Part shown: in pieces, positions 421 to 63,145 of the stretch
How positions within the stretch are numbered: the stretch's first letter is position 1
How the letters are laid out: the number at the start of each line of letters is the position of its first letter
Source of the DNA: Eledone cirrhosa
Lineage: Eukaryota
Direction of reading: 5' to 3'
DNA length: 64,000 nucleotides
Assembly: GCA_964016885.1 (NCBI GenBank)
Contig: OZ024742.1
Span: forward strand, 172,298,001-172,362,000
Translations under genes and position numbers: made by a program
The notes under the pieces: generated by a model
Databases searched by the model: none
Seen by the model: the letters and a program-made list of their open reading frames with translations, nothing else
What the model was told of the DNA's origin: nothing

Positions 421-497
421 ATAGAGAGAAATCTAGAAAAGCGACAGAAGAATCGGAGACGGAGGCGGTGGAATTGAGAGCAGGGGAAAAGTGTCAG

Positions 498-686
498 GAC
501 CCCGACGGCAGAGCTCAAGCCGTTTCGACGGCTATTTCTGGACATAAATAGTCCAGAAATAACCGTCGAAACGGCTTGAGCTCTGCCGTCAGGGTCATAC
601 TTTTTCCTATTTCCCACTCTACTGCCCTAAGTATTGAGTACTCTGGTGCGTTATGGTCCATCTGGTTCCTTACCACAATTCCTTTG

Positions 687-688
<2 letters not shown>
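498..688. mobile_element. PLE pseudo-LTR end (family A) as a foldback carrying the 3' half of a hammerhead
   Basis: Hairpin 498-596 (gaccccgacggcagagctcaagccgtttcgacggctatttctggac / reverse complement); homologous to 41793-41930, 47355-47400, 49025-49115, 13966-14240 and 63020-63145; ends at a (TA)n tract. Confidence 0.8.
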
Positions 689-769
<81 letters not shown>

Positions 770-13839: not shown

Positions 13840-14240
<401 letters not shown>

Positions 14241-14270
14241 TATATATACTTTCCTATATATATATATACA

Positions 14271-14353
<83 letters not shown>

Positions 14354-14605: not shown

Positions 14606-15480
14606 ATTAAATGAATGTAATAGATAACGTATTCTACCTCTATAAATCCATGTATTTCTACTCCTCTTATTGGAACTTTTACTCACTTGTACCCATTAGC
14701 ACACGACACTAGAATGTCTCCCCCTGAGAACAAAAATAAATATTACCCGACTATATCCCTTACTCTACATCCCACTAGGATAACCTATAGAAGATCTATA
14801 TAATACAATTAAAGTTTCTTCATAAAAGACTCTCTCTTTAACTAAACCTCGCAACCCCAAACCTTTAAAAAAATTTAAACTGTTTAATTTTCAATTTTCT
14901 AATTGTTCAATTATCAATCTTCTTACTCATTAATTTTATAATGTTATTCTGAAATTTTTTCAACTTCATCCTATACATCTAAACACTAATTTAACGTCCC
15001 AATTTTCCGTCGGACTGCTGGGTTGGTTTTCCTGGCCCGCGGGACCGGCCTCCTGGCGCATAGGCCTACCTTGAGTGCTTGGAAAAGTAAATTTCCCCTT
15101 CTTTCGGTAAATGAAACTACTAAGAGCGGCCTTATTAGTCCCAGGGGCCCAGCGCGCAACCAGATTTTTGACCGCCATATAGTACCTTTAAATTACAGAT
15201 CTAATCATAACTATTAGATGTATCACGCCTCCTGGGTAAATTAATAGTACTGGTCTTGCACAAGGATGGCCTAACGATGAGGGCTCACTTCCCGCTGGCG
15301 CACCTGAAGCCTGTATTACATTCCTAGAGTGTTCGGAAAAATTGATTTCCATATCTTTCGCTAGGCGATCTCACTCGGAGTGGCTGACACGCGGTTAAGT
15401 TGGGCTGCGTAAGCCAAAAACGTAACACACCTGTACAGGCATCGCAGCCCACCAATAATTCCAAAGTTGCCCATGACAAG

Positions 15481-15918
15481 AATTGTAACTGCCACTTACC
15501 TGAAACATGTCCATTACATAATGAATGTATGCAGTCTAACCTGGTTTACCAATGCACAGTAGAATGAGACAACCAGAAATGGTATTACATCGGAGCGACT
15601 GGGAATACATTTAAAGCCCGTTGGTATACACACCGTTACGCAATGAAACATTCCCAACATCGTTATGTAACTACCCTTGCAAACAAGACCTGGCAACTGA
15701 GGGAAAGTAACCACTAATACACCCTGAAGTGGAAACAATTATCGAACGCACCCCCATATCGGAGTGGTATGAGAAGCTGTGGATTATGTGACCTTGAGCT
15801 GTTCCACATTTTGAGTTCGATTAATAAGTTACTCAACAATAAAATCGAAAGATCAATTTAGTGTAACCATAGACTCAAAGAAAGGTTTTCGCACTACAAG
15901 TGCAAATCGAACCATTAA
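15481..15918 (+). pseudogene. PLE (Naiad-like) Cys-rich linker plus GIY-YIG endonuclease, with stops
   Basis: Manual translation NCNCHLPETCPLHNECMQSNLVYQCTVE*DNQKWYYIGATGNTFKARWYTH...CGLCDLELFHIL...LLNNKIE...CNH; three in-frame stops. Confidence 0.85.
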
Positions 15919-17589: not shown

Positions 17590-17643
<54 letters not shown>

Positions 17644-18032
17644 AGATTTGAATGGATACAGTTTAGTTGAAAGGAATTTATTGACACGTGTTTCTATAAC
17701 AGTTACATAACCTAAAACAGCTATCTACAAACTTTTAGTTATGCAGACATTCAATATTTCAATGTTATTATTTACTGTCATTTCATCAGAATAATATTAC
17801 TGAGGACCTATTTAGTTTTTATAGAGAATATTAGGAGGGAGGGGTGAAGTTGTTAGAAGAATAGTTGAAGGAGTGGTTTTTCGATAGCAGTGAGAATTCT
17901 TGGTGGCAGTGAGTAATTAGATTCCCATCTGTTGTTTTGACATTTTTTATAGAATATATTATTCGGCTTGTAGTGGGAAAAAAGGGTTTTAGTTCTGTGA
18001 CGGCAGAATAATGTTCGTTCAATTCTGTTATT

Positions 18033-18352
18033 CAACGGCAACATCGTTTAAATCTCGATTGTATAGGCATTCTTACTCAATAAAACACCAGAGCCAAAGA
18101 AATGTAACAACTCTAGCAGAAAAAGCTTGGACGCTCAGGGATAGCGATCAAAAGTTTACCCTAAAATGGGAAAAATTAGCTAAAACCCAAAGCTTTTCCA
18201 GGAGCCAAAATTTCTGCAAATTGTGTAATCTTGAGATTTATTACATAATCACACACAAGAAGAAACTGCTGAATAACAGAATTGAACGAACATCATTCTG
18301 CCGTCACAGAACTAAAACCCTTTTTTCCCACTACAAGCCGAATATTACATAA
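18033..18352 (+). pseudogene. PLE GIY-YIG endonuclease C-terminal part (Naiad-like)
   Basis: FKSRLYRH...TTLAEKAW.L......LKW...CKLCNLEIYYI...LLNNRIE...CRH. Confidence 0.85.
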
Positions 18353-18464
18353 AAGAGGGACATCCCCCAACTATATAAACCTTAATCTAGTTAGAAAAAT
18401 ATAAAAACAATCTCTTCTCAACATATATTAATAACCTTAAATTACCATACTAATAATGAAAAGA

Positions 18465-18522
18465 TATGCTGATGAGAATAGGTACAAATATGCGATAATG
18501 AATGTGTCTAAAAACGTCCATA
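18465..18522 (+). ncRNA. Degenerate type I hammerhead (GAAA mutated to AAAA)
   Basis: tatg CTGATGA gaa taggtaca ... tgtgtcta AAAAC GTC cata; stems I and II pair. Confidence 0.5.
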
Positions 18523-18679
18523 AGTATGTATATATATGTGAAAATGTATATAAATAAGTAAATATATATATATGTTTGATGTGTATAGTTAGATGTAAGT
18601 GTATTCATGTATTAAAGTGCTTATATATATATATATATGTATATGTGTGTATATGTATGTTTGTGTATGTATGTATATG

Positions 18680-18724
<45 letters not shown>

Positions 18725-19309
18725 GTATATATGTATGTATATATGTGTATGTATATATGTGTATATGGATGTGTATGTATGTGTATGTGTGTACACATGG
18801 ACTAGAGTATGTATGTATATATGTGTGTGTCTATACGTGTGTATATAAAGATAAGTTGAGTATGAAAATGTATACACATGAGCGCGTATGTATGTACATG
18901 AATACATGTGTGTATATATATGTGTATGCATGTGTATATATATGTAAGTATGAATATGTGAATTGTGTGTATATGTATTTTGTAGAGGTGTGCAAATATA
19001 TTTGTGTGTGAATGCGTGGGTGAAAGGATACGTACACTTGAAAGAAAAATTTAAGTCTGAATGTTAATTAAGTGCAAACACAAAACCAACCACGCATATC
19101 TTCACTATCTCTAATCCTTCTATAGATTTAGAAAAATAACCAATAATATATTCTATAAAAAATGTCAAAACAACAGATGGGAATCTAATTACTCACTGCC
19201 ACAATAATTCTCACTGCTATCGAAAAACCACTCCTTCAACTATTCTTCTAACAACTTCACCCCTCCCTCCTAATATTCTCTATAAAAACTAAATAGGTCC
19301 TCAGTAATA

Positions 19310-19426
19310 TTATTCTGATGAAATGACAGTAAATAATAACATTGAAATATTGAATGTCTGCATAACTAAAAGTTTGTAGATAGCTGTTTTAGGTTATGTT
19401 ACTGTTATAGAAACACGTGTCAATAA
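19310..19426 (+). ncRNA. Type I hammerhead with a long stem II insertion (family B; inverted copy at about 17678-17794)
   Basis: ttatt CTGATGA a atgacagtaa ... ttactgttat a GAAAC acgt GTC aataa. Confidence 0.8.
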
Positions 19427-19602
19427 ATTCCTTTCAACTAAACTGTATCCATTCAAATCTTTCTATTTTTCTCCGGATTACTTTTGGAACTACAACTGGA
19501 ACCGTCGAGCAAACTCTACGTGAGCTGATAATCTACTGTGTGTAATATTTATATTACAACACAACGGAAAATACTGTATATATATATATATATGTATATA
19601 TA

Positions 19603-28225: not shown

Positions 28226-31200
28226 CCTTGAATCTCAGTCATTGATGTTGGTTAACTGGAAAGTCCGTTGGATTGAATATCAAGCCACTACCTGCAGCCT
28301 CAGATATTCAGGACCTATCGGAGGGTTCTTGCCGTTCCAAGCAAGCATGCCTTTTGAAGCGTTCCAAAAAGCGTGAAGGGGCCGATTTTCTTTAACCATC
28401 CCTGGAAACCTTTGGAGATAGTCCCCAGTGCGCCTATGACAATCGGGATCACTTTGACTTCATGGCAGTTCCAAATCCTTTTCACCTCCCACTTTAGGTC
28501 CTGGTATCGGTTAATTTTCTCCCTCTCCTTCTCTTGCACTCTCGTGTCGAACGGGCAGGCCACATCCACAATCAGGCACGATCTTTTTTCTTTGTCCACA
28601 ACCACCAGGTCAGGTCTATTGTGTTCCAGTTTTTTGTCCGTCTGTATCCTAAAATCCCACAGCACCTTCACCTGACTGTTCTCCATCACCGCCTCTGGCC
28701 TATGCTCATACCATTTCTCAGAATGTGGTAGATTGTTTACTTTGCACAGGTGCCAGTGGATCACCCTGCCCATCACATCGTGTCTCCAGCCCTTATAGTG
28801 GGTCTGGGCTAGGTGTTTACACTCGGACACAATGTGAGCCACAGTCTCCTCTCTCTCTCCACAGATCCTGCACAGTGGGCTAGCCTCCTCCTTGTAGATA
28901 TGGTGCTTCAACCACTTCGTTTTGAGGGCCTGCTCCTGCGCAGCCATTAGCATTCCTTCTGTAGCCTTTTTGAGGTCTCCTCTTCTCAACCAGTTCCATG
29001 TCTGTGGATCTCTAAATTCAGTTTTCTCAAAGAAGGTACTATGAAGGGGTTTTCCCTTAAGGCTGCTCTTCCTCCTTGATGTTATTTCCTCCTTGGGTAT
29101 CCCCTGGCCTACTCTCCCCTCCTTCAGTACAGCTCTGAGCATTGGCTCCTTACTATAGGTCACGTATTTGTATAGGTTGTTTTTCTCCATCTGAACACAG
29201 TCCTCTATGCTGATAAGACCTCTTCCACCCTCAGATCTCCTTAGGTAGAGTCTATCGACATCACTCCTCTTGTGGAACATGTTGTAGATAGTCAATAGCT
29301 TCCTAGTCTTCCTATCCATTTCTTTTTGTTCAGCAACATTCCATCTCAGAATTCCCGCACTGTACCTAATAATAGACACAGCTCGGGAATTTACTGCGCT
29401 TATGGCATTTCTGCTGTTCAGATGTGACTTCAATACGCTCCTTACTCTCCGAATGTATTCAGTTCTTAACAATTCCTTCATTTTTTTGTTCTTTATGCCA
29501 TCAGCCTCCAGAACGCCCAAATACTTGTATCCTTCCTCAGAGTCAATTTCCTTTATCATCTCACCTGTTGGTATCTGGATCCCGTTACTTCTGCTCAACC
29601 TACCCCTCCTCATCACAATGACTCCACATTTACCAATACCAAACTGCATACATATATCACTGCTGAAAATACGGACAGTGTCAACAAGCACATCCAACTC
29701 CTTCTCACTTTTCCCGAAGAGCTTAAGATCGTCCATGAAGAGGAGGTGATTGATGGTAAGCTCTCCCCTTCCCAACTTGTATCCTGCTCTCACTTTTCGC
29801 AGCATAATGGTCAAGGGCATCAGGGCAAGGACAAACAACAGAGGGGACAGGCTATCTCCCTGGAAGATACCTCTCTTGATCTTCACGCTTCCCAAGGATA
29901 CTCCAGTTGATGTCAACTCTGTCTCCCAGGACCCCATACTCCTGCCCAGCAACTCTCTGATGTTATCTGCCACCCTGAAGATCTCCAGGCTTTTGGTGAT
30001 CCAGGAATGAGGCACCATGTCAAATGCCTTTCTGTAGTCTATCCATCCCATGGCAAGATCAGTGTGTCTCCTCCTGCAATTCCCCATTACCATCTTATCA
30101 ATAAGCAACTGGTCCTTTGTACCACGTGACTTCTTTCGGCATCCTTTCTGTTCGTCCGGCAACAAGTTGTTTGTGTGGAGGTGATGGTAGATTTCCTCAG
30201 ACACAATGCTCGTCAACAGTTTCCACATTACGGGCAGACATGTGATAGGTCTATAGTTGGTAACATCATTACCCTTGATTCGGTCTTTCATTATCAGAAC
30301 TGTGGTACCTTTTGTCAACCACTCTGGCACCTCACCCGACACCAAGCAGTCATTGAACATGGCCGTCAGCTTCGGGTGGAGGGATGTTAAATGTTTAATC
30401 CAATACCCCTGCACACCATCTGGGCCTGGTGATTTCCAGTTGGTTAGTTTTTTGGCTTGCCCCTTAAGAGTTTCAACTGTGATACTCAAATCAGTCTGTT
30501 GCTGTGCCTGCTCACCGATCTCCCTCTGTACTGTCTCAATCCACCCTGCCTGGGCATTGTGTCTAACATCCTGCTCCCATATTCCTCTCCAGAATGTTTT
30601 AGCTTGTTCCGCCCCAGGGATCAAGTCGGTGCCTCTTTCTTTCCCCTCAAGCTGTCCAAACAGCATCTTCTGGTTGTTGTCGAACATGCGGTTCTGTTTA
30701 TACTGACTGACTCTGTTCTCGTATCGCCTGATTTTGGCACTCTTTGCTACAATGCGTTGCTTCAATTCCTCTATGATAATATTTAGCTTTTTACTCCTAG
30801 TTTTGTATTTTATTTCCAGTCTATTTTTAGTGCCTATGTTTTTTAGTGTCCCATTCAGTAGTGACTCAAGCTTTCCTATGTCATTTCTCATTTCCCCGAT
30901 TTGCCCACTCAGTCGCTTCTTCCACCACGGCTCTGCTCTTTCTTGTCTGTTGTTTCCTCTCGCTTTTATACCAAGTAGTTTCCTCACCGTATTTGCTGTT
31001 GCTTTGAGGATATTGTTGCACTGGTGAAGACTCCTCGCCTCAAGGTATGGGATGACTTTGTTTACCTTAGCTGTTGTTTCTTTTAACTTTTTCCTGTCTA
31101 CAAATCTTAGGTTCATAGGTCTCCCACTATCATTGTTCAACTCATCTACCACTAAATTTAGGATGTCAACCGAATCTTGTCCTAGCCCGTCAGCATTCAT

Positions 31201-32734
31201 CTCCTCAGTGGCCGTATCTCTGTTCCAGGTATTATTTATCTCAGTATTCAGATCATTGTCTGCTTCGGGTGGTTCCTCCGCTCTCAGGACCTCCTCACCT
31301 TCATTTCCCGCCGGCTCGCTTGTCTGGCATACTACACCCGCCATCTCCAAGCCATTCTCTCTGCTCAGTTCCTCCAGTTCCAGCTCGCTTATCCACCCAT
31401 TAGTTCTTATTACCCGAGCCTGCCCGGCCAATTTTTGTTCATCTAATTTAAATAAACCAATCTCGTTCCAGATGTTATGCATCCGTCTCCTGTAGCCCCT
31501 CTCCTTGGGGTTACTTTTCAGGTAGCATTGCATAACAGTTCTATTCAATTCTTTCGTCCAGTTGGTTCTGGCCCCTTTCCTTCTTCTTCTTCCTCCAACA
31601 TCAGCAGTATTTCGTTGACAGTCAGGTTCCTGCTGCTGAGCCAGGGGGCACCTGTTGGGTGAGAGTCTGTCACATGACGTTCTAGTCTCCATTTCACCGT
31701 TATTCGAACTGTTTATGTTCGATATTTAAACACTCTTATCGAGGATTGGCGAATGTATGTTTACATAGCCATCTGTGGATCCGCCATCCCACTTGGCCCT
31801 TGTGTGGCATTATCACCACGCTGTATACGGACACACATAAACAAACAAACACACGGGCAGAAAGGGCCCCAAAAATGAATAAGCATAAGTTTCATTGTAA
31901 TGTAGTATTCGAATGTCTGACTTAGTTTTTGTTTTTTAAGTTTTACTTTTTCCCCCCTCTTCTCTGTCCGTCCGCCTGCCTCTCTCTTCATTCTTATTTT
32001 CTTTACGTTTTGGGGGTTTCTTTTTTTGTTTTTGTTTTTCTCTGTTTTTCTCGTTTTTTACTGTTGTTGCTGTGCTGCTTTTGTTGTTTATTTTTTCTTT
32101 TTTCTTTTGAGTCTATCTATATATTTTGATGCCTTCCTCTTTTTTAGCAGTAGGGATTCTATAATGTGGTGGCAGCAGCCAGCTAAAAGAAGAAGTGGGA
32201 GACTGGCGGCGGTAGCGATACTGAGACAGTGGTGGTGGTGATGTCGATACCGAGACAGTGGTGGCGGTGATGTGACCGTATTACTGTAGCGATGGTGCTG
32301 TAGCGGTGGCAGCAGTGAAGGAGTGAAGGGGTGGTGGCGGCGGTGATGGGATAATGGTTGTAATGATGGCCGTAGTGATCGGTGGTGGTTTAGTGTACAC
32401 AGGTGATAGGGTGGGTGGTGTATCTAGTTTCTGGTGTTGGTGAGTTTGGCTGTTCTATATAGTGTATACAGAGGAGGAGGGGGGGGGGGGTTCTTCTTCC
32501 ATTTATAGCCATTTTCTTTTTTGGATATACAGTGTACAATACAAAGTTGAATATTTGAATATTTGAGCCTTATAACAATATATTTTGGGTCCGAATTTTT
32601 TGGGGCTCAAGCCGGGTGCTTTACGTAGCATTTGTACTAAGAGTTGTTATTTCACAAATGGTTTAAATATGTTAAAAATTCAAAACTTACGGGAGCGATT
32701 TCATGACCTCCGTCACCTCGTGCGTCTTCTTCCC
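28226..32734 (-). mobile_element. Apparently full-length Dong/R4-clade non-LTR retrotransposon inserted in (TAA)n
   Basis: (TAA)n tracts at both ends (28176-28225 and 32735-32782); single long ORF; about 1 kb of 5' UTR. Confidence 0.85.
28315..31692 (-). CDS. R4/Dong-type ORF: reverse transcriptase + CCHC finger + restriction-like endonuclease
   Basis: 1125 aa; NYRPITCL, WIDYRKAFD, GIFQGDSLSPLLF, HLLFMDDLKL, YKYLG; CRIC..ETVAHIVSEC, RHD, RPDLVV..D..P..EKINRY. Confidence 0.95.
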   Translation of the reverse strand: METRTSCDRLSPNRCPLAQQQEPDCQRNTADVGGRRRRKGARTNWTKELNRTVMQCYLKSNPKERGYRRRMHNIWNEIGLFKLDEQKLAGQARVIRTNGWISELELEELSRENGLEMAGVVCQTSEPAGNEGEEVLRAEEPPEADNDLNTEINNTWNRDTATEEMNADGLGQDSVDILNLVVDELNNDSGRPMNLRFVDRKKLKETTAKVNKVIPYLEARSLHQCNNILKATANTVRKLLGIKARGNNRQERAEPWWKKRLSGQIGEMRNDIGKLESLLNGTLKNIGTKNRLEIKYKTRSKKLNIIIEELKQRIVAKSAKIRRYENRVSQYKQNRMFDNNQKMLFGQLEGKERGTDLIPGAEQAKTFWRGIWEQDVRHNAQAGWIETVQREIGEQAQQQTDLSITVETLKGQAKKLTNWKSPGPDGVQGYWIKHLTSLHPKLTAMFNDCLVSGEVPEWLTKGTTVLIMKDRIKGNDVTNYRPITCLPVMWKLLTSIVSEEIYHHLHTNNLLPDEQKGCRKKSRGTKDQLLIDKMVMGNCRRRHTDLAMGWIDYRKAFDMVPHSWITKSLEIFRVADNIRELLGRSMGSWETELTSTGVSLGSVKIKRGIFQGDSLSPLLFVLALMPLTIMLRKVRAGYKLGRGELTINHLLFMDDLKLFGKSEKELDVLVDTVRIFSSDICMQFGIGKCGVIVMRRGRLSRSNGIQIPTGEMIKEIDSEEGYKYLGVLEADGIKNKKMKELLRTEYIRRVRSVLKSHLNSRNAISAVNSRAVSIIRYSAGILRWNVAEQKEMDRKTRKLLTIYNMFHKRSDVDRLYLRRSEGGRGLISIEDCVQMEKNNLYKYVTYSKEPMLRAVLKEGRVGQGIPKEEITSRRKSSLKGKPLHSTFFEKTEFRDPQTWNWLRRGDLKKATEGMLMAAQEQALKTKWLKHHIYKEEASPLCRICGEREETVAHIVSECKHLAQTHYKGWRHDVMGRVIHWHLCKVNNLPHSEKWYEHRPEAVMENSQVKVLWDFRIQTDKKLEHNRPDLVVVDKEKRSCLIVDVACPFDTRVQEKEREKINRYQDLKWEVKRIWNCHEVKVIPIVIGALGTISKGFQGWLKKIGPFTLFGTLQKACLLGTARTLR

Positions 32735-32771
<37 letters not shown>

Positions 32772-32889
32772 TATTATTACTATTTTTTTTTTATTTTTTT
32801 TTTTTATTCCAATTCAATGATGTTCCAGAACAATATAAAAGAGATAATTGGCAATTTAGGTTCTGGAACGAAAAAGATCATTGGCAATA

Positions 32890-35800
32890 AGGGCAGGGGC
32901 CCCAGGTTATCACAGCCTGTGCCCGCTCGTCATCGTGCCATTGTAATAGAGCCAAACAAGGCATTTAGTCTTGGCTGCTGGAACGTATGGACGCTGCTTG
33001 ACAGGGATTCTTTGAGGCGTCCTGAACGAAGGACCGCTCTTGTTGCAAAGGAGCTTCGACGTTACGATCTTGACATCGTGGCTTTATCTGAGACGAGGCC
33101 AGCTGGAGATGGTCATCTTACGGAATTTTGTGGAGAATATACATTCTTCTGGAAAGGAAGAGATGAGGGAACCAGAAGAGAGGTTGGGGTAGGATTTGCT
33201 GTTAAGACTGTGCTTGTGAACAAATTAGAAGGATTCCGAGTAGGGATTAGTGACCGTCTTATGTCCATGAGAGTTCTGCTGGACAAGGGAAGATATGCTA
33301 CCCTGGTGAGTGTGTATGCTCCAACTATGAGTTGTGTCGATGAGGAAAAGGTGTCCTTTTAACATGCCTTGAAAGGTGTTTTAAGAAATATCCCTCAGGC
33401 AGACAAAGTCATCGTGCTTGGTGACTTTAATGCTAGAGTGGGTAGGGATTTTAACACATGGAATGTAATCGGAAGGCATGGGGTGGGAAAGTGTAACAGC
33501 AATGGTATGTTCCTGCTGCAGATATGTGAGGACCTGGATCTGTGTGTTACCAACACCATGTTCCAACAAAAGAACAAATTCAAAACCACATGGATGCATC
33601 CTGCATCTAAGGAATGGCATCTTTTGGACTACGTCCTAGTCAGGATGCGTGACAGACAGGATGTGCAGTGTGTTCGTGTTCTTCGTGGAGCTGATGAGTG
33701 CTGGACGGACCACCGCCTGGTACGCGCAAAAGTGAAACTAATCACTAAACGTAAAATCCGGGCTCCTGGTGTTGCCCTGCCCAAAAGATTGAATGCTGCT
33801 CATCTTGAGGATAAAAATGTGAAGAGGACATTGGAAGAAGAGATGCAGGCTGCATATCTTGGTGAGGACTGGCCGACCCTTAAAACGTCTGTTTATGATG
33901 TAGGCAGGCGTGTTCTGGGATTGGCGCAGAGGAAACATCAGGACTGGTTTGATGAGAATGATGTACATATAGAAGACTTGTTGGCTAATAAGAGGCGTGA
34001 TCTGTCAGGCTACTTGACGGCAAAACCACAGGAGAGGAATACGTTGCATGAGGAACTCAGGGATGTAAAATCACCTGTTAGGCGGAGTCTTTCTCAAATG
34101 AAGGATCAGTGGTGGAGTGAGAAGGCTGGTGAGATACAAACTGCGTCTGATTCCAATAACACAAAGCTGTTGTACAGTCTCTTGCGTGAGGTTTATGGAC
34201 CGTCTTCTTCTCTGGTGACACCGCTTCGGAACATGGATGGCAAAGAACTTCTTCGTGACTCACAAGGAATTCTACGAAGGTGGCGAGAGCACTTTGATGA
34301 TCTTTTGAATCAGCCGTCTGTCGTCAGTGAAGATTTCCTCAATCTCATTCCAGAAAGTCCTGTGAAATAGCTCTCGCAGAACCTCCGACGCTTGTAGAGG
34401 TTGCAGTGGCTATTTCGAAGCTGAACAGTGGAAGATCTCCAGGTATGGATGGCATACATGCTGAGCTCCTACAATATGGTGGTGAGAGACTCCTGCAACA
34501 TCTTCACTCTTTGTTTGGCAGGATATGGGCTAATGAATCCGTACCTGAGGACTGGAGAGATGCAGTAATGGTGGTCTTGTACAAGGGAAAGGGTAACATG
34601 AACGATTGTGGGAACTACAGAGGTATATCATTGCTTTCTGTCGTAGGGAAAGTTTTATGTAGGGTGCTTCTGGACCGTCTGCTGACACACATTGCAGATT
34701 GTGTTCTTCCTGAAAGTCAATCTGGTTTTCGTGCTGGACGCGGCACTACTGATATGATCTGCTCAGCTAGACAGCTCCAGGAGAAGTGCATGGAACAAGG
34801 CTTGGATCTGTATCAGGTTTTTATCGATCTGACAAAAGCTTTCGATACTGTTAACAGAGATGCATTATGGCAGGTTCTCCAGAAACTGGGTTGCCCTGAT
34901 AAGTTCCTTGCTCTAGTTACGTCTTTCCATGACGATATGAAGGCTTGGGTTAATGTCGGGGGTAACATGTCGGAGCCTTTCTCAATAAAAAATGGAGTGA
35001 AACAGGGGGATATTCCAGCACCGACCCTGTTTGCCAAATACTTTGCAATGGTTTTCTGTATTGCATTCAGGAATTGCGAGCATGGTGTTTACATCCGATA
35101 TCGAAACTCAGGCAGCATATTTAACATCAGGCGCTTTGCTACGCAGACAAAAGTATTTACATCAATCATAAGAGAGCTCTTGTATGCAGATGATTGCGAT
35201 CTTGTAGCGCACACAGAGAGTGATATGCAGCACATTTTGAATGCATATCTGACGCTTGCACTGCCCTAGGTCTGACTGTCAGTCTCAAGAATACCGTCGT
35301 CATGTACCAACCTGCCCCTAGTAAGCAGTACACTGAACCAAACATCTATGTGTATGGCAAACGACTTGGAGTGGTTGATCAGTTTGTCTACCTGGGAAGC
35401 ACTGTCAATCGATACAGCAACCTTGACAGTGAAATCTCACTTAGGATTAGGAAAGCAAGTGATGCTTTCGGAAAGCTAGAAAGGCGACTCTGGGGTCGGG
35501 GAGACATATGCAGGAGGACAAAGGTAAAGGTGTACAGAGTATGTGTGCTCTCTTGTCTTCTTTATGCCTGCGAGACCAGAGTCACATATCGACACCACCT
35601 TAAGCAATTGGAGCGTTTCCATCAGATGTGTCTCAGACGGATCCATGGCATTCACTGGAGGGACCACATCAGTGATGTCGAGATTTTGGAAAGCTCTATG
35701 TGTGACAGTATAGAAGCTCTTGTGCTTAAACAACGACTCCGTTGGAGTGGTCACCTTGACAGGATGAAGGATTCTAGAATACCAAAACAACTCTTTTATG

Positions 35801-36365
35801 GAGTGTTGGTTAAAGGAAAACGACCGCCACATAAACCAAAAAAAAAAGGTATACGGATTCCTTGAAAGCCTCTCTGAAAGACGCTAGCATCTCTGCTGAT
35901 ACGTGGGAGAATATTGCTGCTGATCGTAATAAATGGAGAAAGACTGTATATGAGGGAAAAGTTGCCTTTGAGGCATCTCGAATTGCATACGAGAAAGTAA
36001 AGCGGGATGTGAGGGAGGGCATTGCTGTTGCACTTCCAGACGGCGAGGGTCGTCCTATGGTGGTGACATGCAGCGAATGTGTGAGACTCTGCCTAAGCAA
36101 AGCTGGACTCGAAAGTCATCTTCGCAGTCATAAAGTAAGACCAGTGGTTGACTACCAGGCTGCTGTTGGAGATGCTACTCATCATGCTTGCCAAACATGT
36201 GGTAGGGAATGTAAATCAGCAGGAGGGCTCAAGCGACATGCAAAAGTACACGAACTCCAACCACAGCCGACTATTCCCAGTGAATGTTTTGGTTGCCGAC
36301 TCTGTGCAAGACATTTTAGATCATTGGCTGAGCTAAAAAGCCACATTCGATCGCAGCTCTGTTAG
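32890..36365 (+). pseudogene. RTE-clade LINE ORF (APE endonuclease + RT + three C2H2 fingers), disrupted
   Basis: CWNV..L, ALSETR, GDFNARVG, LDYVLV, TDHRLV; NYRGISLL, FIDLTKAFDTV, GVKQG, LLYADD; stops at 33360 and 34368; frameshifts near 35250 and 35850. Confidence 0.93.
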
Positions 36366-41792: not shown

Positions 41793-41793
<1 letters not shown>

Positions 41794-43982
41794 CAAAGGA
41801 ATTGTGGTAAGGAACCAGATAGACCATAATGCACCAGAGTACTCAATACGTAGGGTAGTAGAGGGGGAATAGGAAAAAGTATGACCCCAGCGGCAGAGCT
41901 CAAGCCGTTTCGACGGCTATTTCTGGACTAAATTAGAATTTTTAACCTGGTGAATAAATAGCCAAACTTGTCAAAGGGGTACTTCCTTATATGGGAAGAT
42001 TGTAGTTGTCAAGAGGATTGGTTAAAATTTGTTGTAAACACAAATATGTCTATCATGGCATTTGGTGGGAGGTAGGGATGGCGGAACTTGCCTGTAGAAC
42101 AATAGAGGAGTGAGTGGAGCGGCAAGCGTTGAGAGTGATATGTATACAACAGAATATAAGGATAGTGTATGAAAGGTAGGTGGGAGGTTATAGAATAGGT
42201 AAATAGAATGAGAGTAGGAGACATCAAAAGATAATAGAAATAAAAAAAAATATATGAAATTAGATAGTGAGAAATGAATAAAAAAAATCACAATTCTATC
42301 TTACAATTACAGGTTAATAAAACTGATACAAGATTAAAGGGGTTTAACACGTCTGCTATAAGTAGTTAGTAAAACGTTTTCGGCCAATTTTATCTTAAAA
42401 TTACAGGGGTGGGCGAACTGAGGCTACAGAGGCCTGATGGGCTACATCGGGGTAGGCGAAAGGGGAAAAGCAGACGAGGAAGAAAATAGGGATTGGAAGG
42501 AAGTGATAGGATGATGTAGGGGGAAGAAGAAGACAAAGAGGAAAAGAAAAAGAAAGATATACATATAACTATGTAAGCTGACGTTCCCCTAACTTATTAG
42601 GCAAGTGTGTGTGTGGGGGAGGAGGGGGTATCAGCCCTTGTCTACCCACCTGGGTCGTTATGGGGTTTGAAGGCGAGGTAAGTCCTACCCAATCTGTGTT
42701 TGCATGCGGTTAACAGTTCGTCTTTCTTGTTTAGGAGTTGGTCCTTCGAAAACAGCAATTGTAATGTTTCCTCCGACTATAAGTTACACGGACGGCGTCC
42801 TCCCGTGTAAGAGTTAGCCCTGGACAGTAAGCTCCAAGTGATATTGTAGGTTATATTATTATCTTGGAGGTCCCAGATGTGGCCCGAAAGTGTAGTGGCA
42901 TGTCGCCGGACCGGATTTCGGAAACTATTTCGGTGTTGGTAGAGCGGTGTGTTGAAGTCACACCGGTTAATCCTATATAAGCTTTGTTGGAGGTGTCCGT
43001 CCTCACGTTGCACTAGTAGATCACGTTACGTTTTCGGCATTTGTTGTTGAGGGGGCACGTAGATCTATCAGGGCAGTTACACCTCCTGGTCGGCTCTACA
43101 ATGATGTCTAGGTAATTTCTTCCATAGCGATTGAGTTTTTTGTTGTTTGAGGAAACGATGTTTTGTGCGAAATTAGGTGTGGTACTGTAGGAGAGTTTGA
43201 TGGTGTTTTTGTTAATTATGTTGTGGTAGCGATGTTGTAGTGGGAAGTGTTTTTCGAGGAGTCTAAAGAATATTTCTCCGATAGGTGTTTCAACCTCGGC
43301 ATTATGGGGAGGATTGAACCACGTTACGTTGCGTAAGCGGCGGTGTCGCCTGCTGGTCCCGCTAATGGAAGCTGGATAAAAGGATATTTCCACCCGGAAG
43401 CCACTCCGCTTGAGAGCCTGGTTGTAATGAGGTGCGTGTTCGTCGAATATCTGCTCATTAGCGGACAAACGAGATATGCGGAGGGAGATGTTTTTAACCA
43501 GGTTATTGGTGATGCTTCTAGCATGGTTAGAGCGGCGGTGGAAGTAGTGCAGGTTGCCATTTGGTTTCCTGTATGGGTAGTAAAGATCATTTTCGAGGTT
43601 AAGAGTAACGTCCAGGAAATTGACTCGGGTTAGGGACGTTTGTAGGGTGATTTTAAATCCCCAGTCCCGGAAGAAGTTGATTAGTTATTTACGGACACGC
43701 TCTTTACTAGTGAAGTTGTACCCTTTGAGGGTGAGGAACCCATCATCCCGGTACAATCCACCTGCGAATGCAGGAAACATTTCGGTGAGTTTAAATAGTA
43801 GGAATAATCCTATAAGATCTGTGACCTCGGCTGAATCCGTGGCGCCCATACTGACGTCGAATGGGAAGTCGGGAGCTCTCTTTATCCACTTGGAGTTGTC
43901 GAAAAGTAAGACTGTCTTCCTGGCGTGGAGAATGATATTTCTTTCCTGGTCAGTGATGGGTGTGACTGTTTCGGCAAAGTCA
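41793..43982 (-). mobile_element. 5'-truncated Naiad-like PLE (family A) with RT, GIY-YIG and pLTR
   Basis: FDVSMGATDSAEVTDLIGLFLL, GLYRDDG, TWFNPP, KLSYS, CNC..CPL..C, TTLSGHIW, LLNKKDE..CKH; frameshifted; 3' end at (TA)n. Confidence 0.9.
41884..41980 (-). ncRNA. Hammerhead variant (U3:A8 core, long stem II) with a mutated cleavage triplet
   Basis: acccct TTGACAA gtttggctattt...aaatagccgtc GAAAC ggc ttgagctct gcc GCT ggggt. Confidence 0.6.
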
Positions 43983-44351
43983 GACACACACACAAACAAA
44001 CGCACACACACACATAAATACATATACAAATACATTTATCATTAACTTTCTTCTAGTTTTGTATCCACCACGATATGCATTAACCAACTTCCCCATGTGC
44101 CGTAATGTTATTATGAGATGGAAGTTTGATGTTTATTGTGGCCGGATGGCACGGGTACAAGCTTAGGTGTATTTTGAACATGATTCCAACATAATGTGGG
44201 CAATGCTGATGAAATATTTTCCTCATCATTCATATATCGTAGTGCCTCGACCGGTGTTTGAGAGAGTATAGCTTGAGTTTTTCTAATCGATTTCAATTAT
44301 GAAGGTCAGTCATGCCGTCTATTGGCTTTTGTGATTGACCGCTCTCTCTCT

Positions 44352-47135: not shown

Positions 47136-47318
47136 GGAGGTAGGCTAAAATGTTCAAAGGTTCACTATGATGGAGTGATGCTAGGGCTGTGAAACATTGC
47201 ATGCATTTACTTAATAACTGCAATGTTTTTTTCCGGGGACTATTGCAAAAATAAGCCTCATTTCGCCTCTTTCCATGAGAGTATCTTGGTCGGCCTATGA
47301 ACCTCTCATCCTACCTCG
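47135..47318. mobile_element. Mariner/Tc1-type MITE
   Basis: Imperfect TIRs cggaggtaggctaaaatgttca / tgaacctctcatcctacctcg, flanked by TA. Confidence 0.65.
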
Positions 47319-47339
47319 TATTTATATATATATATATAA

Positions 47340-49115
47340 ATAGGAACAAATATAACCCCGACGGCAGAGCTCACGCCGTTTCGACGGCTATTTCTGGACC
47401 AAATAAGAATTTTTAGCCTGGTAAATAAATAGCTGAACTTCTCAAGGGGTGTTACCTTATATGGGAAGATAGTAATTGTCAAGAGGGTTATTCAAAAATT
47501 TGTTGTAAAGACAGATCATGGCATTTGGTGGGAGGTAGGCGGGGCAGAACTTTCCAGTAGAACAAAGAGGGAGTGGGGGAAACCCAGTGAAGAGTTGAAA
47601 TTGAAATCTATACAGCAGATTCTAAGGATAGTGTGAAATGGTCGAAAAAAGTGTACTGGAGAAAAGTAGGGGGGAGAGGCTTGAAAGAAAGGTAAATCGA
47701 AAGGGAGTAAAACAAACAAAAAAAAAACATTATAAAAATAATGAAGTAAATATAAAAAAAAAATGTCTGGTTGCTACTTCACTTCTACAATCACCAAATT
47801 TCTCACTGGTATTGCTAAGTTATAGAAAAGTTTAATAGGTGGAGAATGGGGAAAATACTAAATACGAGATTGTAGTGAAATAATTTCATAAAGCCGGCTT
47901 TACAGGGGGTCTAACAACGCTGCTATAGATATTTAGTAATTAGCCAATGCTATCTTACAATGACAGGTTAATAAGTTGAGAACAAAATACTATAAAATAC
48001 TACTACAAAAATATTAATACTAATACAGAAATACTAATACAAAAATAGTAATACAAAAATACAACTAAGAAATATAGAAACCATAGAAATGGAGCAGCAA
48101 CCAAAAAGAAAAAAATATTTTACTGGGGTCTAACACATCTGCTATAAAAAGCATAATCGGCCAATTCTATCGTAATATTGGGGGGGGGGTACTGAGGCTA
48201 CACAGGACCGATGGGCTGCATCGAAGTAGGCGAAAGGTGAAAATAAGAGACGAGGAAGGAGATCTGGGGTGGAAGGACTAGGAAGAGATGGGGGGGGGGG
48301 GGAAATTAGAGGAAAAGATAAAAGTTACGTCTACCTTTGTAAGCAGAGTTTACCCTTTACAAGATCGGCAAGTGGGATATCAGCCCTTACCTAAACGGGT
48401 CATTATCGGGTTTGAGGGCTAGGTAACTCCTACGCAATCTGTGTTTGCATGCGGTTACCAGTTCGTCTTTCTTGTTTAGGAGTTGGTCCTTCGAAAACAG
48501 AATTATTAATATTTCCTCCGAGCATAAGTTACACAGACAGCGTCCTCCCGCTTAAGAGTTAGCTCTGGACAGTAAGCTCCAAGTGAGACGTATGTTATAT
48601 TATTATCTTTGAGGTCCCAGATGTGGCCCGAAAGTGTAGTGGCATGTCGCCGGACCGGGTTTTGGAAAGTATGTCGGTGTTTGTAGAGCCGGGTATTGAA
48701 GTCATAAGCGGTTAATCCTATATAAGCTTTGTTGGAGATGTCCGTCCTCACGTTGCACTGGTAGATCCCATTACGATATCGGCATCTGTTGTTGAGGGGG
48801 CACATGGATCTATCATGACAGATACACCTCCTAGTCGGCTTGCCACTGGTGTCAAGGTTATTTCTTCCATAGGGGTTGAGTGTTTTGTTGTTAGAGGAGA
48901 CTCATGATCTCTCTTTACAACAAATTTTTGACCAGCCCTCTTGACAATTACTATCTTACCATATAAGGTAATACCCACTGAGAAGTTCGGCTACTTATTT
49001 ACCGGGCAAAAAAATTATTATTTATTCCAGAAATAGCCGTCGAAACGTGTTGAGCTCTGCTGTCGGGGTCATACTTGTTCCTATTACCCACTCTACTACC
49101 CTAAGTATTGAGTAC
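47340..49115 (-). mobile_element. Second family A PLE copy: GIY-YIG fragment, pLTR and inverted pLTR
   Basis: CPLNNRC..IYQC...AYIGLT..FNTRLYKH at 48400-48830; 48905-49115 is an inverted pLTR copy. Confidence 0.88.
47355..47450 (-). ncRNA. Type I hammerhead with compensatory U3:A8 core
   Basis: acccc TTGAGAA gttcagctattt...aaatagccgtc GAAAC ggc gtgagctct gcc GTC ggggt. Confidence 0.7.
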
Positions 49116-50811: not shown

Positions 50812-50889
<78 letters not shown>

Positions 50890-50892
<3 letters not shown>

Positions 50893-51971
50893 AATGAAAC
50901 GCGTAGGTTACTTCCCTTGCTTTTATCGAGAATCTCAAATTGTAATACGTGACGTATTCTATTCTATAGCGATTAGGTCTTCAAAATGTTTATTATAAAC
51001 ATACAGAATATTTTCGAATATTCTATGTTTGTCTTCACATATATATCGCTATTTCAGAGCATTAAATCCAAATTCTAATTTCTGCCGGACCGGCAACCGC
51101 TCTTTCAAACCAGTTCCTGTACACAGCTAAGTATTCTATAAGTCTCTAGCTGTGTCATTCTCGATAAAAGCATTGGATATGTAATCCTGATGATTTCAAA
51201 TAAGAATGAAACGCGTAGGTTACTTCCCTTGCTTTTATCGAGAATCTCAAATTGTAATACGTGACGTATTCTATTCTATAGCGATTAGGTCTTCAAAATG
51301 TTTATTATAAACATACAGAATATTTTCGAATATTCTATGTTTGTCTTCACATATATATCGCTATTTCAGAGCATTAAATCCAAATTCTAATTTCTGCCGG
51401 ACCGGCAACCGCTCTTTCAAACCAGTTCCTGTACACAGCTAAGTATTCTATAAGTCTCTAGCTGTGTCATTCTCGATAAAAGCATTGGATATGTAATCCT
51501 GATGATTTCAAATAAGAATGAAACGCGTAGGTTACTTCCCTTGCTTTTATCGAGAATCTCAAATTGTAATACGTGACGTATTCTATTCTATAGCGATTAG
51601 GTCTTCAAAATGTTTATTATAAACATACAGAATATTTTCGAATATTCTATGTTTGTCTTCACATATATATCGCTATTTCAGAGCATTAAATCCAAATTCT
51701 AATTTCTGCCGGACCGGCAACCGCTCTTTCAAACCAGTTCCTGTACTCAGCTAAGTATTCTATAAGTCTCTAGCTGTGTCATTCTCGATAAAAGCATTGG
51801 ATATGTAATCCTGATGATTTCAAATAAGAATGAAACGCGTAGGTTAATTCCCTTGCTTTTATCGAGAATCTCAAATTGTAATACGTGACGTATTCTATTC
51901 TATAGCGATTAGGTCTTCAAAATGTTTATTATAAACATACAGAATATTTTCGAATATTCTATGTTTGTCTT

Positions 51972-51974
<3 letters not shown>
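50890..51974 (+). repeat. 312-bp tandem array (about 3.5 units), retrozyme-like
   Basis: agaatgaaacgcgtagg at 50891, 51203, 51515 and 51827; units nearly identical; flanked by (TA)n. Confidence 0.95.
51181..51223 (+). ncRNA. Minimal type I hammerhead ribozyme (copies at 51493-51535 and 51805-51847)
   Basis: gtaatc CTGATGA t ttc aaataa gaa t GAAAC gc GTA ggttac; palindromic stem III ACGCGT; stem I extended by a 16-bp helix. Confidence 0.9.
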
Positions 51975-52046
<72 letters not shown>

Positions 52047-52341
52047 GTATATACATATATATATATATATACACATGTGTGTGTGTGTGGGTGTGTGTGT
52101 GTGTACGTATATATACATATATATAGAATATGAAAATGGCTTCTGCAGGACTAGGACAGTTTCAATCAAATGTAATCGTTAGGAAATGAAGCAGTTGTAG
52201 TCCAGTAGAAGCCATATATATATAACTTGATGTTTACACTCTACTAATGTATTGCGTGGTTTACTTACAACGGTTACATTCATTTGAACGCGACACATAC
52301 ATACACCTTTATATATATATGTATATATATATGTATATATA

Positions 52342-58637: not shown

Positions 58638-59752
58638 AACGAAGAATGATAAAATTTCAAGCAAAGAGTTTAATTAGGTATATTTTGTAATATTATTAAC
58701 TAATTATTATAATTAACGCGCATATTTTGCTATCCCCAAACACGTTTACACATGGCATGAAATATAACTAATCCGAGATGGCTAGGTTTCATCTTCTAAC
58801 TGGATAAACGAAATCCATTATGTCTTGACAACAACATGAGGTAACATTATGTTATTCACAGACACACTTTGTACACTGTTCCATATCAGAATGTATTTCC
58901 TTCGTCACATTCACAAACAGTATTGAAAATATGTTCTTCGGCAAATAAAAATGTTTTGTTCATAATATTTCAACTAGCGATTGCTCTACTCCACGCACGA
59001 CCACCATAAATTAATGACCAGCTCAACACAAGTATTGGTAGAGCGTCAGACACCATGCTTTGCAGTATTGTTATGGTCCTTTGCATTCTAAGTTCAAATC
59101 CTGCCGAGGTTAACTTCGACTTTCATACTTACTAATTCGATAAAATAAAGTACCAGTAATGGACTGCCGTAATGGATTTGTGCCGAAAAATAGAAACACT
59201 ATTAATGTGCAATAAGAGCAAAATATAACGACATTGCTCAATTATTTTATCTAATGTTGTAATAACACAAGGAAATGTTGTTTGTGTATTTTTTTTTATA
59301 TTTGCTCATAGGCTTTTACAATTTCGCTCAGCCAACAACTATTAAAAAGTGAGTTGCTTAAGATAACAATTTAATCACAAATTGTTGCTATCTTTTAATA
59401 CACTCCAACAAGTCATCAAATTATGTACAATAAAAACAAATCTTATTAATTTGCTCAGGGAATATAAAGAAAATGTATATACACTGATAATTGCAAATGT
59501 ATGTAAATATTTTGTTTTTGTATTGTATATTTTGTTTTCTATTATGTATAATATATTGATTTAATATTGATTGTTTTTTGTAGTTGTTTATATTAAAAGT
59601 CTGAAAATATTTTTATACATCTTACACTAATATTTATAAGATAATTTATAATAACAATTACATAATCTAATTACATTACAACGATAATTTATTATTAATA
59701 TATATCCTGTTTAACTAGAGTTATTACAAGCGTTGCCTTAAAAAAATATTAA

Positions 59753-60709
59753 ACTAGACATGAAAAATGCGCAAGCTCAAAAGTGCCACAGAATGTTATA
59801 ATAAACCTTCAAAAGTGTGGGACTAGAGTTGTTGCTAAAAAATATTGTAATCATTATATATCGTACATTCTGTGGCATCCTTTATAAAAATAGCTTAAAC
59901 CAACGAAGCCTTTATTTTTACGCTATTTCACTTAGTTAATTCTTAGAGTGTAACATATAAAAATAAATACATCTATGTTTAATGTAATAACAGCTATAAA
60001 TAATTACGTAATATTATTATCATATACTCATAGTAACAAAATAATTGTGTTGAAACTTAATATGATGCTTATATGAACGATCAAATCTATAATGATAATT
60101 TCTTAAATATACTAATAGTAAAATAATTTAGTTATCTATTGTTACATTTTCATAGAACTATAATATTAACAATCGTATTGCATTATCAAATTTTTATCAC
60201 TACAAACTTTCATATTGGAATTACCTTAAGCCACTTATTATTACTTCGCTTTCGTACTTTTACAGCTGTAGATATTGCGCTGTATCTTATATCTAATATC
60301 AATATCTCGTGGTAATTTGCATGAAGTGTAAAATAGGTTTATTAATAACTTTAATATGAAATGTATTATACAGGGCTGCGGAGTCGGTCAAAAATTGACT
60401 GGCTCCAACTCAGGATCCGATACTCCATTATTTCCTAAATTTCAGCTCCGCAGCTCTGTTATTATATTAATTAATTTATTTTATAGTTGTAAATCATATT
60501 TTTATATGTTACACTCTAAGAATTAACTAAGTGAAATAGCGTAAAAATAAAGGCTTCGTTGGTTTAAGCTATTTTTATAAAGGATGCCACAGAATGTACG
60601 ATATATAATGATTACAATATTTTTTAGCAACAACTCTAGTCCCACACTTTTGAAGGTTTATTATAACATTCTGTGGCACTTTTGAGCTTGCGCATTTTTC
60701 ATGTCTAGT
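59753..60709. mobile_element. Non-autonomous element with near-perfect TIRs of about 210 bp and ACTAG...CTAGT termini
   Basis: 59753-59965 is the reverse complement of 60497-60709. Confidence 0.85.
60371..60458. mobile_element. hAT-like MITE nested in the TIR element
   Basis: TIRs cagggctgcggag / ctccgcagctctg; 8-bp TSD gtattata / ttattata. Confidence 0.75.
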
Positions 60710-60794
60710 ATAAATATGTATGCATTCTTGTTTAAATAACTGTTAGTAATTAAAATATTTAAAGTGCTAAACTTCTTGAGGAACGGGTGGGGAA

Positions 60795-63019: not shown

Positions 63020-63145
63020 AAGGTGTGGTAAAATATCAGGTGGACCATAACCCACCGGTGTGCTCGATACTTGCAGTAGAAGAGTGGGTAGTATGAAAAG
63101 ATTCAGGACACCCGACGGCTGAGCACTGGCCGTCTCGACGGCTAG
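63020..63145 (-). mobile_element. Diverged family A pLTR end
   Basis: ggaccataac.cacc...cccgacggctgagcactggccgtctcgacggcta. Confidence 0.7.

Follow-up and report, generated by a model that had tools for sequence, protein, structure and literature searches.

A hammerhead motif with a U3:A8 family core, and subfamilies with matched, mismatched and restored cores, in a Penelope-like element of Eledone cirrhosa

The window, the whole 64,000-nt stretch of DNA that was analysed, carries at 47355-47450 on its minus strand a type I hammerhead motif with a U3:A8 core, which is the norm of its family. In our estimate the chances are slightly better than even that self-cutting by this motif is slow and optional, and not something that transposition requires. 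Subfamily counts and trees showed an order of core states within the lineage, from U3:A8 to C3·A8 and back to U3:A8. Self-cutting is likely to be weak or dispensable for jumping, since more than 1,500 mismatched copies have spread and the pair was later restored. Judged by the motifs of its ORF, the host of the motif is a Hydra-clade Penelope-like element (PLE), 5'-truncated and with the hammerhead in its 3' pLTR. The focal copy consists of the following parts.

47355..47450, minus strand: type I hammerhead motif in the 3' pLTR, a copy of subfamily A3 (sequence, scan, subfamily assignment)
47450-47446 (5' strand), pairing with 47359-47355, minus strand: stem I, 5 bp (sequence)
47439..47445, minus strand: core U3 U4 G5 A6 G7 A8 A9, UUGAGAA (sequence)
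47383..47438, minus strand: stem II, opening with G10.1-C11.1 followed by a small internal loop (sequence, folding)
47435-47427 with 47393-47385, minus strand: main helix of stem II, 9 bp around the 33-nt loop II (sequence, folding)
47397..47403, minus strand: TYAGTY, a conserved word of loop II and the end point of most short insertions (end mapping, alignment)
47382-47379, minus strand: GAAA (sequence)
47361..47382, minus strand: GAAA and stem III, 5 bp, ACGGC/GCCGU (sequence)
47372-47367, minus strand: self-complementary GAGCUC in the loop of stem III (sequence)
47359..47360, minus strand: predicted cleavage site, 3' of C17 in GUC, C17 being 47360 (hammerhead consensus)

Three stems surround the core of the focal copy and both ends lie in stem I, as in a type I hammerhead. 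The copy carries U4 G5 A6, A9, G10.1-C11.1, G12 A13 A14, A15.1-U16.1 and H17, and one of its stem II pairs is broken. Under the type I model, 85.9% of cells were paired, compared with 28-50% in slid controls; the cells of stem I, which is 5 bp long and reaches 10 bp in some predicted folds, were 90% paired across subfamilies. Cleavage after C17 is presumed from the established hammerhead consensus. The half made of stem III and stem I had 52,647 exact matches genome-wide and its reversed control had 0, hence the motif is beyond chance. The architecture described in the earlier note (stem I, a long stem II, GAAA, ACGGC/GCCGU and GUC) was seen on the minus strand, and the cores UUGAGAA here and UUGACAA at 41884-41980 both read as given there. 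The full architecture with GUC had also been ascribed to the 41884-41980 copy, which instead has GCCGCU and a broken A15.1-U16.1. Standard searches do miss the motif, as had been anticipated: Rfam gave no hammerhead family match at E<=10 for 47250-47560. A loose hammerhead scan of both strands of the window returned the focal copy as the sole match.

The remainder of the element and its relatives in the window are placed as follows.

47342..47354, minus strand: short 3' end of the element, stopping 17 nt past the predicted cut and joining the (TA)n target (sequence)
47451..48505, minus strand: 3' UTR (position between ORF piece and pLTR)
48506..48901, minus strand: broken C-terminal GIY-YIG endonuclease fragment carrying the Hydra-clade CxCX5C linker (motif comparison with PMC8557442)
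48903..49116, plus strand: inverted arm of the same insertion, with a C3·A8 hammerhead at 48973-49069 and part of the long tail (sequence, scan)
41793..43985, minus strand: second 5'-truncated element, subfamily A2, with RT/endonuclease pieces and the long (+97) end (sequence, ORF pieces)
41884-41980, minus strand: U3:A8 hammerhead of the second element, UUGACAA, lacking U16.1 (GCCGCU for GCCGUC) (sequence)
484..690, strand not assigned: two short pLTR stubs in inverted orientation, each ending in loop II and without the 5' core (scan, subfamily assignment)
14144..14289, strand not assigned: two short pLTR stubs in inverted orientation, without the 5' core (subfamily assignment)
63024..63144, minus strand: stub of sister lineage B with the 3' strand of stem II, stem III and the tail (subfamily assignment)

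An intact 717-aa ORF was found in genomic copy L261 and contains RWR, DKT, CxCX5C, PCNLC and ACKH. The features of Hydra-clade ORFs, as taken from the motif list in the compared part of PMC8557442, are all present: a single ORF, RT followed by a C-terminal GIY-YIG, an RWK-like motif, DKT, CxCX5C, and CxxC and CxH near the end. The insertions likewise display Hydra-clade traits, namely a (TA)n target, pLTR tandems, an inverted 5'-truncated arm and a tail. The ORF had 247 relatives of about 700 aa, all at least 598 aa long (best identity 35-47%), and no match in a Pfam search. Its ATG lies 190 nt past the cut site. In the youngest subfamily (L261:3579-3780) about 70 codons before the ATG are open as well, and the frame thereby reaches back across the tail and into stem III; in older subfamilies a stop codon interrupts this stretch. 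The 3' UTR (47451-48505 in the window, and relatives) turns over fast between subfamilies, growing from about 0.7 kb in A1-A2 to 1.0 kb in A3 and 1.2 kb in A4-A9. Within these fast-changing surroundings a GC-rich block at 48185-48245 was kept from A1 to A8 with 77-90% identity (135 local matches). A second, antisense hammerhead in this block was considered and rejected, as folding predicted none and gave no clear fold. Elsewhere in the window there are endonuclease pieces of more distant Penelope-like families (15457-15888 and 18035-18340, 31-40% identity), an open 1,136-aa frame with RT of non-LTR retrotransposon type (28315-31725, minus strand) and a broken non-LTR retrotransposon whose pieces were labelled by inspection as endonuclease-like, RT and zinc-finger-like (32676-36365, plus strand). 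A near-perfect 312-bp tandem repeat occupies 50888-52123, and two long inverted-repeat elements with arms 99-100% complementary lie at 17638-19466 and 59749-60713.

The core states were counted with a pattern that left positions 3, 7 and 8 free and had 2,014 exact matches genome-wide. C3·A8 accounted for 378 of them, and 31 were without A8, including 11 with G8. Only 3 of these lineage A matches had the C3-G8 of canonical CUGANGA, a Hydra-clade trait; lineage A counts as Hydra clade despite its core, because the clade is defined by the ORF and not by the ribozyme core. With a wider pattern the 3:8 Watson-Crick pair, present as U-A in the focal copy, was found in this form in 5,245 matches genome-wide and was absent in 1,566 C3·A8 matches, whereas CUGANGA had 32; reversed controls gave 0. 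The family core is therefore UUGANAA rather than CUGANGA, as had been proposed, and the few CUGANGA matches, mostly chance ones upstream of stubs or single decayed copies, do not make a consensus. What did not hold was the covariation claimed for the two U3 copies in the window, since both carry A8, likewise 1,983 of the 2,014 matches. C3·A8 as the family mode, a candidate that came from the 30 closest look-alikes, was overturned by the unbiased pattern counts. All four letters occur at N7. In DNA reads of three other samples position 3 was C in 39/331, 27/286 and 19/228 (8-12%), with no listed change at positions 4, 6 and 8 at the 1% level; this census is pattern-free, but biased by the placing of reduced-representation reads on a young copy.

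Subfamilies were defined by loop II letters, by which 225 of 255 copies were assigned and 30 left unassigned. A hand count over a shared 67-Mb interval took in 99 U3:A8 and 27 C3·A8 family matches and gave 29 U3 and 1 C3 in A1-A2, 2 U3 and 24 C3 in A3-A5, and 68 U3 and 2 C3 in A6-A9 (Fisher tests, p = 2e-12 and 4e-18). Divergence of the 3' UTR, which lies outside all patterns, was 0.08-0.09 in A1, 0.03-0.06 in A2-A5 and 0.013 in A8; the values for A6, A7 and A9, based on 3-6 copies apiece, overlap that of A5. Trees of the endonuclease region, which is independent of the ribozyme, formed a ladder of A1, A2, A3, A4, A5 and then A7-A9, in which the young U3 subfamilies were nested within the C3 grade (UFBoot 99-100; one of the trees covers 58 of 69 rows). 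On the evidence of counts, divergences and trees, C3·A8 is the inherited master state of A3-A5 and not decay. The return to U3 is a single event and could be neutral. The trees also placed G7 before C3, and a small basal group of A3 has inherited U3 with G7 (this tree kept 196 of 255 rows, without A7-A9).

The focal copy belongs to A3, from whose column majority it differs at 8 of 113 positions (11 for the next-best subfamily). Its U3 is probably secondary, because the subfamily state is C3 and the sister arm of the same insertion has C3; a change after insertion is most likely. The same discordance was observed in two other A3 insertions. The sister arm itself, at 48973-49069, reads CUGAGAA, and its C3/A8 had been taken for decay. 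This part of the claim fell, given the 1,566 inherited matches in A3-A5, and the other part stood: the copy is otherwise decayed, with damaged stems and 11 differences.

In sister lineage B loop II differs from that of lineage A and stem II has three pairs altered on both sides, which represents one A/B split and not three independent events. The first 100 of its 294 matches comprised, by hand count, about 84 U3-A8, 9 U3·G8 and 3 C3-G8. A pattern for the G8 group had 60 matches (hand count: 16 U3·G8, about 30 U3-A8 and 9 C3-G8), and the canonical core is confined to this part of lineage B (9/60). The endonuclease of the G8 group is equidistant from every A subfamily, at 0.31-0.32; divergences within lineage B, 0.11 and 0.10, are too alike to order C3-G8, U3·G8 and U3-A8 there. 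As far as the subfamily states tell, all four pyrimidine-purine combinations at 3:8 are present as inherited states. The main lineage B pLTR (B-main) lies behind a distant Hydra-type ORF with 30-37% amino acid identity, and the G8-group pLTR behind an ORF that shares about 72% DNA identity with that of lineage A. A swap of the pLTR/ribozyme module between families is possible (copies L236, L253 and L411).

The motif is unevenly constrained. Measured on 11 subfamily yardsticks, variable columns amounted to 0/12 in the other core positions, 1/10 in stem I, 1/8 in stem III, 8/21 in stem II, 21/33 in loop II and 13/17 in the flanks (p = 3e-6), in a test that is partly circular, as the search patterns fixed some core letters. 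The constancy was echoed by the DNA reads and by 8 whole copies chosen by their tail only, which are free of that circularity. Just upstream of the motif the 3' UTRs of A and B are unalignable. These data bear on whether the motif is a catalytically dead relic, retained as a promoter and as a structure that RT binds and initiates beside. Such a relic would tolerate the mismatch phase; the motif contains or adjoins the probable RNA start and the two RT start points, an excess of insertion ends at the cut site was not replicated, and Naiad PLEs are described in the pages of PMC8557442 drawn on here as proliferating without canonical hammerheads. However, the positions with catalytic roles (U4, G5, A6, A9, G12, A13, A14 and C17) have been constant over an ORF divergence of about 0.3 substitutions/site, the master states at 3 and 8 are always a pyrimidine and a purine, and N7 is free to vary, like in active hammerheads. 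We regard a dead relic as fairly unlikely. The core constancy could also reflect overlapping promoter or protein-binding needs.

The hammerhead fold lay 0-1.5 kcal/mol from the predicted minimum in 8 of 13 representative copies. It was above the minimum in A4 (+2.4), A5 (+3.6) and A1b (+3.0 kcal/mol), and in A4 and A5 the rival hairpin GCCGU-CGAA-ACGGC prevails in prediction; the energies for B-G8 and A7 come from damaged copies and are unreliable. Shuffle folding z-scores of single copies, from -1.85 to 0.35, were unremarkable. GCCGUC is present twice within 47361-47388 of the window, which gives the 5' strand of stem III an alternative partner upstream; the resulting hairpin is predicted to be dominant in A3-A6 and in the 5' half-ribozyme.

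A rival reading, which extends the functional variant proposed in the earlier note, is that U3:A8 forms a fully active compensatory core and that the enlarged stems give the element an efficient monomeric ribozyme, which it requires. U3:A8 is indeed the commonest and the youngest state, the hammerhead fold is at the minimum or within 0.8 kcal/mol of it in copies of A1a, A2, A3, A8, A9 and B-main, the youngest subfamily has gained an A10.2-U11.2 pair, and 6 of 6 multi-unit arrays examined belong to subfamily A8. Natural U3-A8 cores, arisen by C3-G8 to U3-A8 covariation, are cited as active in the consulted section of Perreault et al. 2011 (PMC3088659), and in the text of PMC4209133 fungal PLE hammerheads with a long helix III cleave as monomers. 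Against full activity, three successive subfamilies with at least 1,566 copies carry the C3·A8 mismatch and 52,647 arms span the cut site. In one pairwise deep scan (PMC9901934, main points) U3:A8 was no rescuing pair, the sole rescuing 3:8 swap being G3:C8. PLE hammerheads are of low activity according to PMC4209133, which also reports about 1,300 U3-A8 matches in PLE pLTRs of Schistosoma. Read side by side, these portions of PMC3088659 and PMC9901934 indicate that the activity of U3:A8 hammerheads depends on context. Full activity of the family core is, in our judgment, unlikely.

Alternatively, the C3·A8 subfamilies might be active by other means: a protonated C·A wobble, A-to-I editing of A8, or a shifted register in which C3 pairs with the G at position 7, leaving no N7 and an extra A before G10.1. 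G7 was present in about 92 of the first 100 C3·A8 matches listed and is older than C3, although this G7-C3 link amounts to one evolutionary event. U3·G8, which is isosteric with C·A+, is inherited in sister lineage B, and the inverted arms would yield the double-stranded RNA for editing. As to the shifted register, PLE hammerheads usually have an extra base between 9 and 10.1, as stated in the relevant passage of PMC4209133. The folds speak against such activity, as A4 and A5 fold worst into the hammerhead, and so do the single mutants at 3 or 8, of low activity in the data used from PMC9901934. We consider this explanation highly unlikely.

Insertion ends offered a view of the RNA that is copied. 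Most copies are stubs, as is evident from 52,647 stem III halves against about 6,800 with the core upstream. Among 93 copies chosen by the tail word alone, 51 ended 47-35 nt upstream of the cut, 8 spanned the motif and 4 ended at the cut. When both arms were counted, 95 of 127 ended at -45..-35 from the cut, with a sharp rise at the A at -41, which falls in the TYAGTY word conserved in A and B; at least 13 arms extend 1-6 nt past this A. In the focal copy the corresponding A, at 47400, is replaced by G. The word resembles the arthropod-type initiator, and the RNA is likely to start there, in loop II, at this candidate start. Alternatively, ends may accumulate in loop II because RT halts at the small hairpin inside the loop. 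Among ORF-linked copies the majority extend across the entire upstream hammerhead, and of the 29 that are truncated 7 stop at -45..-35, an outcome that is neutral as to the candidate start. Of 121 arms, 50 had a 3' junction at which the TA run began at +17, and 35 had one at +97. The insertions carry both sides of the cut, hence the copied RNA would have been uncleaved or re-joined. Halves split at the loop II end are predicted to pair by 9-13 kcal/mol, with a hammerhead fold in A8 and A2 and not in A5.

This pattern of ends agrees with two known elements, as far as the sections used describe them. Penelope of D. virilis has an internal promoter with an initiator in its pLTR (PMC2377424). In the anole PLE, mutants with a dead hammerhead still insert in vitro, the template is uncleaved RNA, RT has two internal start sites and the ribozyme requires protein (PMC11167929).

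Genomic traces of cutting were also sought. Ends at the cut site were found in 6 of 29 truncated ORF-linked copies, in 0 of 11 in a replicate and in 4 of 85 in a third sample; insertion ends were rejected as fossil evidence of cleavage, as the excess failed to replicate and pausing of RT at stem III would leave the same trace. The youngest subfamily also forms head-to-tail arrays, which contain 2-5 pLTRs and units of 3.53-3.55 kb, several with intact 717-aa ORFs (copies L445-L453 and L516-L520). In the six arrays examined, units differed by 0-8 substitutions within and by 6-58 between arrays, and units of an array shared private stops. Rolling-circle copying of the arrays is possible. In arrays a1 and a2 two unit types alternate, which fits dimer duplication or an assembly effect as well as rolling circle, and arrays were rejected as proof of a circular template; the alternation equally weakens their weight for a fully active core.

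On the preferred reading, a slow and optional self-cutter, transcription would begin inside loop II, leaving just the 3' half of the ribozyme at the 5' end of the RNA, and the downstream pLTR would hold a whole ribozyme. With uncleaved or re-joined RNA as template, reverse transcription would start 17 or about 97 nt beyond the cut, and RT would usually run off at the RNA 5' end, producing many stubs. Occasional cleavage would trim tandem transcripts to unit length, possibly aided by the element's protein or by two copies pairing via the long stem II or the GAGCUC loop; for the GAGCUC-loop region a self-duplex of -27 to -31 kcal/mol is predicted, compared with -5 to -7 for the hairpin. Weak selection on cutting would let position 3 drift among pyrimidine-purine states, the remaining core being kept. 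A bolder scheme, which we hold to be quite unlikely, combines the inherited 3:8 states (C-G, U·G, U-A, C·A and U-A again) with an RNA start that splits the ribozyme in loop II: the 5' end and the 3' pLTR would clasp through the long stem II, closing an RNA of unit length that could then be cut, joined and copied by rolling circle, at a rate adjusted by the 3:8 pair.

Why PLEs keep hammerheads is treated as an open question in the parts of PMC8557442 and PMC11167929 consulted. The family provides a dated natural series of matched, mismatched and restored pairs, with thousands of copies each, in one lineage with intact young elements. With it, cleavage rate can be set against copy output, and the need for cleavage is testable in an intact element. 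The series further indicates that a compensatory change in a catalytic core can go via a mismatch, and loop II may double as a promoter start site. The U3:A8 variant alone adds little. Przybilski and Hammann 2007 and Lunse et al. 2017 may already cover C3·A8 or U3·G8. A literature search that covered few subscription papers, and not the supplements of PMC4209133, returned no amplified C3·A8 core, no such subfamily series and no RNA start in loop II. The U3:A8 variant itself is already known from the published text of PMC3088659 and PMC4209133; what is new is its host in the Hydra clade, a history in which the pair was matched, mismatched and restored, and the accumulation of insertion ends within loop II.

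The comparisons that follow rest on the portions of each source that bear on the motif. With Hydra-clade PLEs (Craig et al. 2021, PMC8557442) the family shares RWR, DKT, CxCX5C, the C-terminal GIY-YIG, the (TA)n target, an ORF of about 717 aa and a type I hammerhead near the 3' end. The Hydra-clade rows of File S2 in that paper all have CUGANGA, a stem II of 3-7 bp, a loop of 3-10 nt and a short stem III, whereas the Eledone cirrhosa family has U3:A8 or C3·A8, a stem II of 9+1 bp, a loop of 31-36 nt and a stem III of 5-6 bp. The Cercyon PLE min-hammerheads of Schistosoma mansoni (Cervera and De la Pena 2014, PMC4209133) have in common with it the U3-A8 swap in the pLTR, high copy number, a long helix II and a palindrome in helix III. 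Unlike the Eledone family, they lack a real helix III and need dimers; here stem III has 5-6 bp and is not missing or 1-2 bp as in an obligate dimer, although the loop palindrome still permits one. The Cercyon text considered does not describe a mismatch phase or an order of subfamilies. The U3-A8 hammerheads of Perreault et al. 2011 (PMC3088659) share the U3-A8 covariation and a stem II able to open with a single pair; they have no tie to a retroelement lineage, and C3·A8 and U3·G8 are unmentioned in the relevant section. PAc Poseidon of the green anole (Frangieh et al. 2024, PMC11167929) shares two internal RT starts that define a 'tail', an AT-rich target and an uncleaved template; its canonical C3-G8 min-hammerhead overlaps the ORF start, whereas in the Eledone family the ATG lies well past the cut and the two ends are 80 nt apart. 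Finally, the fungal and protist PLE hammerheads with a large helix III (PMC4209133) have, as in the Eledone family, a helix III long enough for a monomer fold; they belong to endonuclease-less elements of other kingdoms, and the tested example cleaves at 0.16-1.97 per minute.
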